Origin: a virus
Strand: one strand, 5' to 3'
DNA length: 64,000 bases
Virus record (IMG/VR): IMGVR_UViG_3300011115_000650
Of the stretch, positions 23,354-63,965 are shown one piece after another. Under the pieces are notes generated by a model. It saw nothing but the letters and a program-made list of their open reading frames with translations, had not been told where the DNA came from and did not search any database. The position numbers and the translations under genes were made by a program. How positions within the stretch are numbered: position 1 is the stretch's first letter; each line of letters opens with the position of its first letter.

Positions 23354-23394
23354 GGTATGGTGAGCTTATTTAATATAAATATCTCACCTTTTGA

Positions 23395-26696: not shown

Positions 26697-26722
26697 AGTA
26701 TAGTTTATTTAATATAAATAGT

Positions 26723-43825: not shown

Positions 43826-44038
43826 TTAAACCGTAGGTACATCCTCGGCAAAGAAGTTAGATAGAAACTTAGCCAGTCCAGCTACAATCAACACCCCTAC
43901 AGCAATATTTTTATAATCACTAGCAAAGCTGATAGTTGATACCGTCATCGCACCTGCTAGTAGAGCATCTGCAGTACGGCGTATTCCCTTTGGTGTTGGT
44001 TTCCAGTAATAGAACCATCCGAATTTTATTTTGTTCAT
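43826..44038 (-). CDS. Small 2-TM protein, holin-like
   Basis: YWKPTPK..R..D followed by two TM helices; late-type motif upstream and terminator at ~43770-43797. Confidence 0.5.
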   Translation of the reverse strand: MNKIKFGWFYYWKPTPKGIRRTADALLAGAMTVSTISFASDYKNIAVGVLIVAGLAKFLSNFFAEDVPTV

Positions 44039-44065
44039 AGTAAGTCTATTTACAATAAATAGTAC

Positions 44066-44094
44066 AAAAAAAGGTAACCATTACTGATTACCTT
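44066..44094 (-). terminator. Intrinsic terminator closing the RNA-gene transcript
   Basis: AGGTAATCA-GTAA-TGGTTACCT followed by a T run. Confidence 0.75.
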
Positions 44095-44116
44095 CTAGTG
44101 GAGACTTACAATAGGG

Positions 44117-44734
44117 CTACTTTACTTTTTTACCTCTTACCCATCCTTCAGGTACTGGATCATCTTTTGTTATCTTTCTAACCTCTACTCCATTTGTGAT
44201 GTATCTTACACCGTACTGAGAGTTTAACACTCCTTTCTGTTTTAAAGCGTTTGCTAATCCGATTTTCTTTTTCGTCTCTTCTCTATGCTTCCTACCTATC
44301 CAGTTTGGTACTGTAGGTTTACGAGTTCCACTTTCGTAAAGCTTTTTATTTCTTTCACTACATATTTTGGAAAACTTTTCTTTGAAGACCGGGTCTTTTA
44401 GTTTCTCTTTAAACCCTCGAGTAGCAGCTAAGTGTGCTCCACCTACACCTCCTGTTTTTAAATTCATACAGTTGAGATCTTTCATTAGATCGTCATTAAC
44501 AAGTTCTTTCTCTCTCTCAGCTAACTCCTCACGAGTGCTATAATACTCTAAAATTTCACATTTAAAATTAGATTTACCGTGCTTTCTAATAGCTCTTCTT
44601 AATCTTGTACCACTTCCAAGATAACCATCTTTTAAATTTGAAGTAGAATGCATTCCTACATAATACTCTCCGTTTAAAAGATTGGTTGTCTTGTAGATGA
44701 AGTGATGTTTTTTACTTTCATTGATGTTTGCCAT
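44117..44734 (-). CDS. GIY-YIG (Seg-like) homing endonuclease
   Basis: FIYKTTN..NG.YYVGMH...DGYLGSG, CMNLKTGG.GG, NUMOD3-like HREETKKKI; start MANINE follows a late-type motif. Confidence 0.85.
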   Translation of the reverse strand: MANINESKKHHFIYKTTNLLNGEYYVGMHSTSNLKDGYLGSGTRLRRAIRKHGKSNFKCEILEYYSTREELAEREKELVNDDLMKDLNCMNLKTGGVGGAHLAATRGFKEKLKDPVFKEKFSKICSERNKKLYESGTRKPTVPNWIGRKHREETKKKIGLANALKQKGVLNSQYGVRYITNGVEVRKITKDDPVPEGWVRGKKVK

Positions 44735-44743
44735 ATCTATCTT

Positions 44744-44758
44744 TATAATAAATAGTAC
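44744..44758 (-). promoter_or_regulatory. Representative late-type promoter motif (C/A)TATTTAT(T/A)
   Basis: Recurs shortly upstream of starts at ~775, 8350, 22192, 23377, 26716, 40400, 44056, 44750, 56961, 60217, 63198 and 63956. Confidence 0.6.
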
Positions 44759-44779
44759 AAAAGTCAAAAAAGTGCCCGA

Positions 44780-45326
44780 GGAGATGACGGGAGTCGAACC
44801 CGTGTCTTGATATGGAAACGTAACACCAACGTCTCACACGCTTAGCTACTCTGTTCTACTCAGAAGCAGGAGGTAGATCTAGGGTGGAATGCTTATCTCA
44901 GCAGCAGACGTACGAAACGTTCCCTTGATTAGTAATGGGACTGTAGTGGTAGCTACAGTAGGTCCACCACTTGGTTGATTCGGGTTCAACCAAGAAAACC
45001 TTTAGAGATCACCTACCAAAGGTAAATGATTAACTCAACCGCCCCGATTACACACATTCTTGACGGGGATCATTCCAACATTGTGACCACTTTACGGTAG
45101 TTGGATATGCAAATTTTGTAACTATTCTGTTCCAAGGTCAGTCACCAACCTGAAGATTACGCTGCTACAGCAACTGACTCGAAAGCCATGTTGATGATAG
45201 ATGCACCGATTTCTTGACGAGATGTTTTTTCTGCGTTTATTGTTTTACAAGTATTTAAGGACGTTCATGCTTTGTCCGCGTGTGGTGCTACCCTTCTGCA
45301 TACCAATCAAATGCCAGGACATCCCC
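44780..45326 (-). ncRNA. ssrA: tmRNA (~547 nt)
   Basis: 5' GGGGATG pairs with 3' CATCTCC including G3.U; T arm ACGGG-TTCGACT-CCCGT; tag ORF 45157-45234 AEKTSRQEIGASIINMAFESVAVAA*. Confidence 0.9.
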
Positions 45327-45338
45327 ATATTATTTTAG

Positions 45339-45437
45339 TAGTCAGGACAGGATTCGAACCTGTATGAAATATCTTAGGCATGTTTCTTCGCGTTTAATAC
45401 TTCTCACCGTGTGCGTCTACCATTCCGCCACCTGACT
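45339..45437 (-). ncRNA. tRNA-like RNA, same scaffold as 9351-9440 with a different core
   Basis: AGTCAGG/CCTGACT+A, GGCGGAATGGTAGACGC, ACAGGTTCGAATCCTGT; no canonical anticodon stem. Confidence 0.7.
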
Positions 45438-45499
45438 ATTTAGACTTCTAAAACCCATCTCTTATCGAGGTAAGGAAACTTAGTCCAATGTTTTTTGCG

Positions 45500-45576
45500 T
45501 AGTCAGAGCCGGACTCGAACCGGATAAGTAACCATTACTGGATTCGGAACCCGTTCCTCATTACACCCATCTGACT
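45500..45576 (-). ncRNA. Degenerate tRNA-like RNA (possible CCG loop)
   Basis: Acceptor AGTCAGA/TCTGACT+A, T arm CCGG-TTCGAGT-CCGG; abnormal D arm. Confidence 0.5.
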
Positions 45577-45694
45577 ATCATTAAAAGGTAATGGAAGTTC
45601 CTCGACCTCTTCCTAAGTTCAGTACCTTTGTGCCCTGCCCTTTGTTTTACACCTCTTTAAATAAATATAAGTACTTTACTTCGACTTTCCAACT

Positions 45695-46117
45695 TTAGTC
45701 TACAATAGTTTCCATTGTATGTGGTACAATCCATCTAATACAGTCCTGAGGTAATCTATTGATGTGTTTGTAGTTATTAATGTATCCCATCATATTAGCC
45801 GACCCTATTGCATTAGCACTATGTACTTTAACAGTTACTACCGGTTTGCCTTCTAACCATTGATCAACTAACCACTTAGTACAGTCCATACCTGTCTTCT
45901 CAGTTATGTTATCATAGTCTAGAGTGTAGTTGTGATAGACATTTGTATGCCATTCCTTCATTGCACTATCTCCTAAATCATGATCTAGTGAAATTAGTTC
46001 GATATTTTCTAGTCCTATCTCGTTGATAGTATCTACAAATTCATCGTAATTACGAACCACAATCCACTCTTGATCGATTGGTGTTCTTAGATCGTCTAAG
46101 TATATTAACTTTTTCAT
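45695..46117 (-). CDS. Receiver-like 'cyclic-phosphate processing' domain protein
   Basis: IYLDDLR.P, W..VRNY.EF, ISLDHDLG, TG.D...WL, VHSAN..G. Confidence 0.65.
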   Translation of the reverse strand: MKKLIYLDDLRTPIDQEWIVVRNYDEFVDTINEIGLENIELISLDHDLGDSAMKEWHTNVYHNYTLDYDNITEKTGMDCTKWLVDQWLEGKPVVTVKVHSANAIGSANMMGYINNYKHINRLPQDCIRWIVPHTMETIVD

Positions 46118-56104: not shown

Positions 56105-56929
56105 CTAATCTACAAACATCCAATTGTATTTATTTGAGTTGCATCTGTAGTTAACTAATCCTCTCGTAATACCAAAAGCTTTTGCTGCTTCCTGACCTGT
56201 TTGATAGAGAACACCATCAGCTTTTACTTTCTTGCTATTTGAAGGCTTGATTGTTCTAGCATTAGCGTACTCTCTAAGCTTCTGTTTAGTTTCTTCCGTA
56301 TGGGTCTTTCCGTAAAATGGATTGTTAGCTCCTGACCTATCTCTACATTTACCGCAAGCTTTAGACGTCGGATCTATTCTTGCTCCACAATCACAAAAGG
56401 TACGTCCTCCTTTCCAATTTGGATTATTATCACCTTCATAACTTCGACGATTATTCGTACACCTCTCGATCAACTCGGTTGGCTTTTGCTTGCCTTTCCA
56501 GTACCCTTCCTTTCCATACATTCCATTATTCTGTCCTCTAACCTTAGTAGACCTCTCCTCTCGCTCTTCTGCTGATAGAGAATCCCAATACTGCTTTGCT
56601 GTTATTGATTTCTTTTCAAGGTACTCCGGATCGGTGTAGTTGATAAAACTAGAGGTATCACCACCGGTTCCTCCTTCAGTTAGGTTGTATCCGTTTTCGA
56701 TAGCGTTCTTTTCTTTAATCCAGTAAACCTCTCTACTGTTAAGATCTTCCTTATCTATACACTCTTCTAAGATACACTTTGTAAAATTCTCTAGCCCATA
56801 CTTCTGTATAGCTGCTTTGATTAGCTTGCCACTACCAAAATACGAATCGAAGTTAGATCCGCTATACTGTCCAATGTACATTTTTCCATTGAGATTATTT
56901 TTAATCTCGTAGACTATAAATCTTTTCAT
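56105..56929 (-). CDS. GIY-YIG homing endonuclease with NUMOD3
   Basis: IVYEIKN..NGKMYIGQ, YFGSG, GYNLTEGG.GG, NPFYGKTHTEETKQKL. Confidence 0.85.
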   Translation of the reverse strand: MKRFIVYEIKNNLNGKMYIGQYSGSNFDSYFGSGKLIKAAIQKYGLENFTKCILEECIDKEDLNSREVYWIKEKNAIENGYNLTEGGTGGDTSSFINYTDPEYLEKKSITAKQYWDSLSAEEREERSTKVRGQNNGMYGKEGYWKGKQKPTELIERCTNNRRSYEGDNNPNWKGGRTFCDCGARIDPTSKACGKCRDRSGANNPFYGKTHTEETKQKLREYANARTIKPSNSKKVKADGVLYQTGQEAAKAFGITRGLVNYRCNSNKYNWMFVD

Positions 56930-56984
56930 ATTGATACTGTGTTAGGTTTACCCTTTAATATAAATATCAGAAAAGTAGAAAAAG

Positions 56985-58148
56985 CTAATTAGAAAGTGGA
57001 ATTTTTATAGCTGGGTGGCTTTGATATCCTTCGATAATAAAATCACCAATCTCATAATGTGCGATGTCATCAACTTTACTATTTAGTATTTTTAACTTCG
57101 GTAATGGGTATGGCTCCCTACTAATCTGTTCCTTAACACCATCAATTTGATTTAGGTAGATGTGACAATCTCCCATATTCGCAATTAATTCATCAGGAAC
57201 CATATTAACTTCTTTGGCTATGATTTCTAAAAGTAGAGCATAACTTGCGATGTTGAATGGGGTACCCAACGGAACATCTTGACTTCTAGTATTATACATT
57301 AAAGAGATTGCTCTGGTTGGGATATTCCATTTATTCATTAACTCAATTATGATGTCATCTTCATTTCTACTATGTCCATAATCTAATAATGATTCATATT
57401 TAAGAACATCAATAGCGTAATCCTTTCTTTCATTTAAACTCAACTCTCTTGTATAAACTTGAAATCCATAATGACAAGGTGGAAGTACCATTGAATCCAA
57501 TTCTCCAACATTCCAAGCATTAACCATTAATCGTCTTGAGTCTGGATTTGTTTTAAGGTCGTTGATTAGGTTTGCGATTTGGTCAACTGCACTCGTTTCT
57601 ACTACAATACTATCATCTGACATATTGTACATTTCCTCAAATTTTCTACGTCTAACATTAGTTGTTTCCCATCTTCTCCATTGATGTCCATAAATTTTTC
57701 CGAGTGACCCCCATTTATTAGCAAACTCATCATCTGTTTTGATTTTGTTGATAAATTCTTCTTCTGATAATATCTCACCATTTTCATTAAATGGTGTTGG
57801 TTTTATTTTTTTACCACCATCTATTTTTAAATAAAAATCATATACTTCTTTATTTTGATTAATTTTTTCAAAAAACGATTTATATGCGTCACCTGTCCAG
57901 ATATTACATTCATTATCAACTAAGTACTTAATATTAGTATCTCCACGTAAGAACCAAAGAAGCTCAGTTACCATAGTTTTAAAAGCTATCTTCTTGGTAG
58001 TTAGGAGTGGAAATCCTTCGGACATTTTATGTCTTATCTGTCTTCCAAATACTGATATAGTACCCGTTCCTGTTCTATCTTGTTTAGTTACCCCATTGTC
58101 TAAAATGTCTTGGAGTAGGTCTGTGTATTGTTTATCTATTGTATTCAT
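56985..58148 (-). CDS. thyA: Thymidylate synthase with large insertions
   Basis: DRTGTGT, FPLLTTKK, ELLWFLRG, DSRR, LPPCH, RSQD...PFNIASY, GDCHIY. Confidence 0.95.
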   Translation of the reverse strand: MNTIDKQYTDLLQDILDNGVTKQDRTGTGTISVFGRQIRHKMSEGFPLLTTKKIAFKTMVTELLWFLRGDTNIKYLVDNECNIWTGDAYKSFFEKINQNKEVYDFYLKIDGGKKIKPTPFNENGEILSEEEFINKIKTDDEFANKWGSLGKIYGHQWRRWETTNVRRRKFEEMYNMSDDSIVVETSAVDQIANLINDLKTNPDSRRLMVNAWNVGELDSMVLPPCHYGFQVYTRELSLNERKDYAIDVLKYESLLDYGHSRNEDDIIIELMNKWNIPTRAISLMYNTRSQDVPLGTPFNIASYALLLEIIAKEVNMVPDELIANMGDCHIYLNQIDGVKEQISREPYPLPKLKILNSKVDDIAHYEIGDFIIEGYQSHPAIKIPLSN

Positions 58149-63230: not shown

Positions 63231-63965
63231 TTATACAGCATTTTTTAACTTCCAAACATACCCTTTGTGTGTTTTAATATGCCCGTGAACACACCTACTT
63301 ATTCCCGATACATTAAATCCATCTTTAATAGCATCCTCCATCTTATCGTAGTCCTGCACTTCTTCTAAAGTGTCTTTGTCGAGACAGATTACAGCTTTAT
63401 TAAAACCAGGCCTACCAATCTGCCATCCGGGGTATTTAACTAGGTCAGTTTTATTTATAAACTTAACCTCTCCGTTTTTATGTATATGTATATTACCGGT
63501 AGCTAATGCTCTCCCTTTTCGTCCTGCAGATAAATAACATTCACGATTGCAATAATTAGCTACAGGTCGTACATGTGAATTAATTCTAGAGTTTTCTTTA
63601 CCGCAACTACTACATATAATAGTAGTTTGTCTCAGCTTTTCTTTTTGAACCTCTTGTTTTAGTCTCTGGTATACTCTACTGCTCGGGATATATCTTTTTT
63701 TAGTTTTATTTTGTTGACACATTGCGTAAGCAGCATAGAGTAATTTGCTATTTCCTCGATGTATTTCACATAGCAATAAATGAGCGATAAAGTGTTCTTT
63801 AGCTGTCAAAGCTACTATGTTTTCCTTACTATTATCACCTCCTAAACATTTAGGTACTACGTGATGTTTTTCTACATACCCTTCTAATTGCCTACTCTTT
63901 GCTCTTGATATTAGACTGTCGTACAATGTACTGTAGTTCATACTGTCTTTATTATAAATAGGCAA
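63231..63965 (-). CDS. HNH homing endonuclease with a NUMOD1-like C-terminus
   Basis: EKHHVVPKCLGGDNSKENIVALTAKEHFIAH; ISRCVHG..KTHKGYVWK; probable start MNYSTLY. Confidence 0.85.
   Translation of the reverse strand: MPIYNKDSMNYSTLYDSLISRAKSRQLEGYVEKHHVVPKCLGGDNSKENIVALTAKEHFIAHLLLCEIHRGNSKLLYAAYAMCQQNKTKKRYIPSSRVYQRLKQEVQKEKLRQTTIICSSCGKENSRINSHVRPVANYCNRECYLSAGRKGRALATGNIHIHKNGEVKFINKTDLVKYPGWQIGRPGFNKAVICLDKDTLEEVQDYDKMEDAIKDGFNVSGISRCVHGHIKTHKGYVWKLKNAV

Follow-up and report, generated by a model that had tools for sequence, protein, structure and literature searches.

The 64,000-nucleotide (nt) stretch of viral DNA considered here (IMG/VR record IMGVR_UViG_3300011115_000650, hereafter the window) is a section of a large AT-rich phage genome of freshwater origin (about 34% GC). 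On its minus strand, a transfer-messenger RNA (tmRNA) gene of 547 nt to the last acceptor base (44780..45326) is followed by a gene for a GIY-YIG homing endonuclease and, behind the latter, by a second sequence resembling the 3′ end of the tmRNA. It is highly probable that a free-standing endonuclease cassette has invaded the site directly behind the tmRNA gene and that the second end is a scar of this invasion. The two tmRNA ends would then represent the footprint of a homing endonuclease and not a new route of tmRNA maturation.

The key evidence comes from three relatives, L061 from IMG/VR and L086 and L087 from JGI metagenomes, which were found by using a downstream gene of 70 amino acids (aa) as an anchor and by an exact-pattern scan of metagenome contigs. 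All three carry the same tmRNA and the same downstream gene, and the endonuclease is absent at the site; their acceptor stem runs straight into the trailer and terminator that lie at 44099-44063 in the window. Alignment with these alleles reveals an insertion polymorphism and delimits an insert of 680 nt (44100..44779, minus strand), whose boundary slides by 5–7 nt owing to a short repeat (left copy 44784-44778, right copy 44104-44098). The copies match at six of seven positions, the mismatch being the discriminator position. Since the three relatives show the same trailer and terminator directly after the acceptor stem, the downstream copy is not a chance resemblance, and for the same reason the segment from 44099 to the terminator can be identified as the displaced native trailer. 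This segment (44063..44099, minus strand), recognized by a terminator scan and by comparison with the relatives, includes an intrinsic terminator (hairpin 44096-44069 plus a T-run) that is the sole terminator-like hairpin between the tmRNA and the next gene and stands behind the endonuclease; the scan found none between the tmRNA and the endonuclease. The adjoining pseudo-acceptor GTCTCC-A-C (44098..44105, minus strand) appears to be a remnant tmRNA end with an A-type discriminator, as it is identical to the native end of L087 from TCTCC-A-C onward.

An earlier interpretation made from the letters of the window without database searches (the sequence-only reading) had noticed both ends, and its description holds: the contiguous tmRNA end does have a U discriminator, T at 44779, as confirmed by Rfam, by the sequence and by contigs of three other studies, and GTCTCC-A-C at 44105-44098 does lie about 680 nt downstream, behind the GIY-YIG open reading frame (ORF) and before the terminator. 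It had offered an invasion scar as one of two explanations, which agrees with the endonuclease-free relatives running from the acceptor stem straight into the displaced trailer of the window. It had also linked CTCC-T ends in endonuclease-free relatives with a downstream match that was unconserved and due to chance; L061 and L086 do end in CTCC-T, but the downstream match turned out to be a real remnant, not chance, yet one that is not conserved.

The tmRNA/endonuclease junction is not an assembly artefact. Its left side, with T at 44779, is bridged by contigs X5, X6, and X9 of three other studies, X5 and X9 bridge the right junction too, and both junctions are present in L088, a second endonuclease-bearing allele. 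No joint skipping the endonuclease occurs among the contigs of four runs, which by their nature cannot show transcript ends or prove absence; numerous joints at 45364-45422 stem from unrelated transfer RNAs (tRNAs). Exact searches of IMG/VR with a hypothetical empty junction and with the window's own junction gave zero matches, and the named phage genomes of INPHARED contain no close relative, only short matches to the endonuclease.

Comparison with L088 shows how the two ends have fared. The endonuclease proteins are 97% identical, and the ORFs differ at 22 positions, with synonymous divergence (pS) of 0.12, non-synonymous divergence (pN) of 0.012, and a pN/pS ratio of about 0.1; the endonuclease is under purifying selection, and neutral divergence amounts to about 12%. 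No difference is seen over the last 84 nt of the tmRNA and the adjoining first 16 nt of the insert, U at discriminator position 73 (U73) included, against 3 in the 17-nt tail of the insert. In the pseudo-acceptor of L088, TCTCC has become TCTAC, which breaks the would-be G2-C71 pair. Two of the tail changes strike the 3′ arm of a pairing between the insert ends, the 5′ arm of which is unchanged, so that they are uncompensated. By this comparison, the contiguous tmRNA end appears to be constrained and the downstream copy to be a decaying scar.

The endonuclease family as a whole follows a position rule. Loci were read after an IMG/VR protein search and look-ups of individual homologues, three being found independently via their tmRNA. 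Each of the 15 groups of loci read has the homologous ORF beginning 45–55 nt behind a tRNA-like 3′ end. Nine groups have a tmRNA as neighbour (the window, L088, L089, L094, L097, L079, L080/81, L035, and L002/40) and the other six a tRNA (L090/91, L092/93, L095, L096, L078, and L082). The neighbour in L094 is called neither by Rfam at the gathering threshold nor by ARAGORN, and it was counted as a tmRNA for the likeness of its 3′ part to that of the window. An additional homologous stretch stands behind a tRNA in L051. A conserved leader motif, recognizable in 11 of the 15 groups, starts 5–8 nt after the acceptor stem, and the downstream flanks of the homologous cassettes are unrelated. The T-arm/acceptor sequence is the only feature common to the sites and as such is a candidate recognition site. 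Seven other tmRNA loci bear the cassette behind a normal A73 and without a duplicated end; in the L035 lineage, as judged against the endonuclease-free L058, L023, and others, the cassette has replaced the terminator, again without duplication. Because the L035 lineage lacks it, the repeat of 5–7 nt in the window may be regarded as a by-product of one repair event rather than a feature of the element.

The course of events can be pictured as follows. The endonuclease would recognize the T-arm/acceptor DNA of endonuclease-free alleles, cut it, and be copied in by repair, so that a cassette with its own phage-type promoter would have come to stand right behind the tmRNA gene, the join lying 1–2 nt beyond the acceptor stem. 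The native trailer and terminator would have been displaced 680 nt downstream and a 5–7 nt duplication of the tmRNA end left at the right junction, probably through microhomology-mediated repair. The working 3′ end of the tmRNA would be the contiguous CTCC-U, generated as tRNA 3′ ends usually are, through trimming and the addition of CCA, and the downstream TCTCC-A copy would be a non-functional scar. Because the tmRNA terminator is now behind the endonuclease, the two genes are likely co-transcribed: read-through from the tmRNA promoter probably spans the ORF up to the displaced terminator, and tRNA-type 3′ processing may separate the tmRNA from the endonuclease transcript. The U73 tmRNA would still be charged well enough to be kept. 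If T-arm/acceptor DNA is indeed the address of this large GIY-YIG family, it would explain the presence of such genes in phage tRNA clusters.

Several observations weigh against this account. Other cassette-bearing lineages lack the duplication, and L035 has simply lost the terminator. The target site is a putative one, deduced from the sequence common to the flanks. GIY-YIG enzymes leave 2-nt overhangs, and these alone do not account for a duplication of 5–7 nt. Zero divergence of the tmRNA end from L088 could reflect recent gene conversion instead of selection. The only RNA-library contig, X15, covers the tmRNA body of an L086-type relative and not its 3′ end. Finally, U73 deviates from an element conserved in prokaryotic tRNA-Ala, and the chargeability of the tmRNA is therefore questionable (PMC9976931).

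The endonuclease gene itself (44117..44734, minus strand; assigned with Pfam and PHROG) encodes a protein of 205 aa followed by a stop codon. It matches Pfam PF01541 GIY-YIG with 29.1 bits (cut-off 22.6) and phrog_314 ‘homing endonuclease’ at 4e-38, while its score for PF19835 SegE_GIY-YIG, 24.2 bits, is slightly below the cut-off of 25. The translation shows FIY at residues 12-14 and YVG at residues 25-27. At least 1290 proteins are homologous at E <= 1e-20; a phmmer search against PDB sequences gave no match. The ORF takes up 618 of the 680 nt of the insert and leaves non-coding flanks of 45 and 17 nt, in accordance with the remark of the sequence-only reading that the non-coding part is too short for a group I core; there is no group I match at E <= 1.

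The cassette leader (44735..44778, minus strand), delimited with the junction table of homologous loci, contains a conserved T-run/TTGA motif at 44773-44764 and a motif resembling a phage promoter at 44754-44740, and both are common to homologous cassettes in unrelated contigs. The promoter-like motif TATTTATNNTAAA has 25 matches in the window against 12 expected, and no shuffle reaches 25. Exact copies, when placed against the ORF list, are found 15–25 nt upstream of minus-strand start codons; examples from the motif scan are 23369-23381, 26708-26720, 56954-56966, and 63948-63960 (minus strand). TATTTATNNTAAA is probably a phage-specific promoter, and since the leader motif recurs upstream of other minus-strand genes of the window, the cassette is likely to possess a promoter of phage type. 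On the minus strand, no endonuclease promoter was detected by a sigma-70 scan, and the promoter assignment for this gene rests on the phage-specific motif. A 14-nt repeat flanking the endonuclease was considered as a possible duplication and rejected; it is better viewed as two copies of the promoter consensus, which also occurs upstream of other genes. To judge from its sequence, the endonuclease is free-standing, has its own expression signals, and lies outside any intron or intein, and it appears to be a further member of the Seg-type free-standing homing endonucleases, a known group. What is added to the knowledge of this group is modest: the strict address behind tRNA-like 3′ ends, the alternation of intron and endonuclease described below, and a persistent U73 tmRNA.

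The window contains a second free-standing GIY-YIG endonuclease gene, which is I-TevI-like (56105-56929, minus strand) and is located directly behind the gene for thymidylate synthase (56985-58148, minus strand). Its zinc finger, NUMOD3, and I-TevI DNA-binding domains all score above the Pfam cut-offs, and the gene is preceded by the promoter-like motif TATTTATNNTAAA at 56954-56966. I-TevI of phage T4 resides within the intron of td, the thymidylate synthase gene. The ThyA protein of the window exceeds the Pfam model by about 120 aa.

The tmRNA gene is recognized by Rfam RF00023 (45326-44779, minus strand) with 56.6 bits against a gathering threshold of 47, the full model 1-374 being covered; ARAGORN does not call it, and Rfam was required. 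The acceptor stem consists of 7 pairs (5′ strand 45326-45320, 3′ strand 44786-44780) and includes, by direct reading of the sequence, the alanine identity pair G3-U70. The tag frame comprises 25 codons and ends with Ala-Ala before the stop; it is identical in L086 and L087, as is the 5′ half of the tmRNA. The Rfam scan found no intron in the T-arm of the window tmRNA. The pseudoknot region (44845-45114, minus strand) is mosaic with respect to L086 and L087, blocks of about 140 nt and about 60 nt being swapped or absent, and despite this, the 5′ third and the T-arm are identical; the RNA-library contig X15 has the L086-type arrangement.

At discriminator position 73, the window has U (T at 44779, minus strand), where the Rfam model expects A. 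The same 22-nt T-arm/acceptor sequence is followed by A in 60 of 60 IMG/VR loci and by T in 0, and in bacteria by A in 118 of 120 loci and again by T in 0. U73 in this tmRNA is thus real and truly rare, the normal state being a near-universal A. According to a review, every known prokaryotic tRNA-Ala has kept A73, and recognition of minihelices by alanyl-tRNA synthetase (AlaRS) was severely affected when this base was mutated (PMC9976931). Among the close relatives, position 73 is T in L061, L086, and L088 and A in L087; an IMG/VR search for further T-discriminator alleles returned the L061 contig and two chance matches within coding sequence. Since U73 occurs in the endonuclease-free L061 and L086, it was not created by the insertion, and since the seven other endonuclease-bearing tmRNA loci retain A73, it is not needed for coexistence with the endonuclease. 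The U73 alleles came from several studies and years. The tmRNA locus of the window itself looks like a mosaic: the segment from the last pseudoknot to the T-arm agrees with the U-type L086, and on the right the flanking sequence, with the promoter-like motif that precedes the next gene, agrees with the A-type L087. Each copy of the repeat thus seems to carry one of the two natural position-73 alleles. The persistence of a U73 tmRNA in several samples would permit the weight of the discriminator in tmRNA charging to be measured in vivo.

All three endonuclease-free relatives bear a 208-nt insertion without an ORF in the T-loop of the tmRNA (L061 328-535). The region 317-538 of L061 matches Rfam Intron_gpI with 55.7 bits (gathering threshold 50, E 2e-13). 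The insertion is preceded by U and has G as its last base, its removal rebuilds a 7-nt T-loop, and it sits after the second base of the loop. For the T-loop of tmRNA, 883 unique sequences with group I introns at four subsites are known, and the subsite after the second loop base (‘position 3’) has been reported only from Bacteroidia (PMC11915505). The subsite used here may hint at a host within Bacteroidota; an exact search of bacterial genomes for the intron core found nothing, hence no host link was obtained that way. A distance of 19 nt separates the intron site from the cassette join. The intron alone is present in three alleles and the endonuclease alone in two, and the contigs from the three other studies resemble the window in lacking the intron at the junction. 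No endonuclease homologue was found by tblastn in the fetched parts of the intron-bearing contigs. In these data, the intron and the endonuclease never occur in one genome, which looks like alternative occupancy or competition, and the T-arm/acceptor region of the tmRNA would be a landing site common to two kinds of selfish element. Together these genomes provide a natural set of closely related alleles, combining intron with A73, intron with U73, and endonuclease with U73. One could go further and suppose that the GIY-YIG family and the ORF-less T-loop intron are mutually exclusive and that U73 was selected as protection from the endonuclease at a cost in alanylation. This is a speculative and rather unlikely proposal; if true, it would mean that a conflict between selfish elements made tmRNA depart from the universal state of one of its identity elements.

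Other explanations of the two ends have to be weighed against the invasion. The second explanation of the sequence-only reading was an intron-like element or a loop-out, by which the insert would be removed or looped at the RNA level and the downstream TCTCC-A would give a chargeable tmRNA with A73. The downstream copy can indeed pair with the 5′ strand of the tmRNA, as that reading maintained, forming 6 pairs including G3-U at −6.6 kcal/mol, and it is followed by A and then by the terminator. The contiguous end, by comparison, forms a stronger helix of 7 pairs (−8.4 kcal/mol) stacked directly on the T-arm, while the mutated pseudo-acceptor of L088 reaches only −2.4 kcal/mol. The complementarity of the insert ends that had been noted does exist: the first and the last 30 nt pair at −14.3 kcal/mol, a value attained by only 1.5% of shuffles. 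It is nevertheless weak, as 5% of internal windows pair with the 5′ end of the insert as well as its 3′ end does, and it is not kept in L088, where the 3′ arm has suffered the two uncompensated changes. A scan of 43900-45600 with Rfam cmscan under permissive filters found no group I, group II, or other ribozyme family at E <= 1, although Intron_gpI scores 55.7 bits on L061, and the ORF leaves only 62 of the 680 nt outside it. The repeat offers no suitable register either: if the insert ends in G, an A stands before the 5′ splice site, and if a U stands there, the insert ends in U, so that no register has both. In addition, the U73 alleles L061 and L086 exist without any second end, and the seven tmRNA loci with the cassette behind A73 have no duplicated end. 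RNA-level removal or looping of the insert was rejected on the ribozyme scan, the registers, the state of L088, and the U73 alleles, and only a very slight chance is left to it. A duplication by an integrase-type island, in which the two ends would be attL/attR-like repeats at the tmRNA 3′ end, is brought to mind by the fact that tmRNA genes are often integration sites of islands that duplicate the 3′ end (PMC11915505). The repeat here is just 5–7 nt long, the insert is a single gene for a 205-aa endonuclease with no integrase, and the cassette stands behind the tRNA and tmRNA genes of other phages without a repeat; the probability of this explanation is very small.

It might also be supposed that the tmRNA has been disabled or repurposed: with U73 it would be a poor substrate for AlaRS, and the gene would be decaying or would supply an uncharged decoy against host trans-translation, the insertion being tolerated. 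Such an idea has some basis in the conservation of A73 in prokaryotic tRNA-Ala and the severe effect of its mutation on minihelix recognition (PMC9976931), in the observation that none of 180 other loci has T after the same 22-mer, and in a reported phage tmRNA-like RNA without a coding sequence that inhibits host tmRNA (cited in PMC11915505). The gene is otherwise intact: G3-U70 and the T-arm are in place, and the window, L086, and L087 share one and the same tag frame. Relative to L088, the gene shows no change in its last 84 nt, while neutral sites differ by 12%, and U73 alleles have been sampled in several studies and years. An intron with intact splice boundaries is still maintained in the U73 alleles L061 and L086, which would serve no purpose if the gene were dead, though a selfish intron needs no host benefit. 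On balance, a disabled tmRNA is improbable, and the invasion by a free-standing cassette behind a working tmRNA is preferred.

Among the known systems, the nearest counterpart of the invading cassette is SegB of phage T4. In PMC2988022, which cites Brok-Volchanskaya 2008, SegB is described as a free-standing GIY-YIG enzyme encoded between tRNA-Arg and tRNA-Ile, which has the tRNA region as its target and causes the DNA flanking it to be inherited preferentially. The likeness is that a GIY-YIG gene stands free among the tRNA genes of a phage, has its own promoter, and is present in some relatives and absent from others, with a transcript embedded in the context of a tRNA precursor. The window differs in that the neighbour is a tmRNA and the join lies within 1–2 nt of the acceptor stem, touching the discriminator; furthermore, many unrelated genes with tRNA-like 3′ ends have members of its family at the same fixed position behind them. 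The sequence evidence for a kinship with the Seg enzymes consists of the Pfam GIY-YIG and SegE_GIY-YIG matches.

The group I introns of the tmRNA T-loop (Williams 2002; PMC11915505) are exactly of the kind carried by L061, L086, and L087, in this case in phage contigs. LAGLIDADG endonuclease genes were found in 23 of the 844 such introns first screened (PMC11915505). In contrast to these reported genes, which lie inside the intron, the endonuclease of the window is of the GIY-YIG type and lies outside the tmRNA, and the insert as a whole is not an intron. Convergence of a free-standing endonuclease and an ORF-less intron on one conserved site is known as collaborative homing (PMC3984707, PMC2988022), and an endonuclease may be pre-adapted to the site where an intron inserts, as exemplified by cyanophage psbA with F-CphI and T4-like nrdB with mobE (PMC3984707, PMC2988022, PMC2790892). 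In the window and its relatives, unlike in these cases, no genome combines the intron with the endonuclease, and their sites lie 19 nt apart. With genomic islands at tmRNA 3′ ends, the window has in common an insertion leaving a duplicated piece of that end, and it differs by the one-gene insert, the lack of an integrase, and the length of the repeat, 5–7 nt.

As for the surroundings of the tmRNA locus, the window encodes GroEL, thymidylate synthase, a glycosyltransferase block, and a tRNA cluster. The downstream gene of 70 aa with its promoter-like motif (44061-44049) occupies 43826..44061 on the minus strand, and its product is 99% identical at the aa level in L061. A tRNA-like gene of 99 nt (45339-45437, minus strand), 12 nt upstream of the tmRNA, matches the Rfam tRNA model with 40.5 bits and is not called by ARAGORN; its acceptor stem, D-arm, and T-arm are perfect, and its 49-nt middle part is non-canonical. 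L086 has the equivalent tRNA shell around an unrelated middle part. A gene for a cREC_REC protein (45695-46117, minus strand; PF20274 ‘cyclic-phosphate processing receiver domain’, 1.3e-22) is situated between the tRNA genes and the tmRNA. GOLLD RNA, absent from the window in our scan, was detected with 290–312 bits inside the tRNA/tmRNA clusters of several related freshwater phage contigs (L035 771-1177, L051 3209-3610, L002 599-1006, and L092 1586-1999). Two unusual tRNAs were called by ARAGORN within tRNA clusters: a suppressor-type tRNA with the anticodon tta, which reads the stop UAA (L095 2555-2628), and, in a related phage contig, a tRNA with the four-base anticodon taac (L096 2577-2649).

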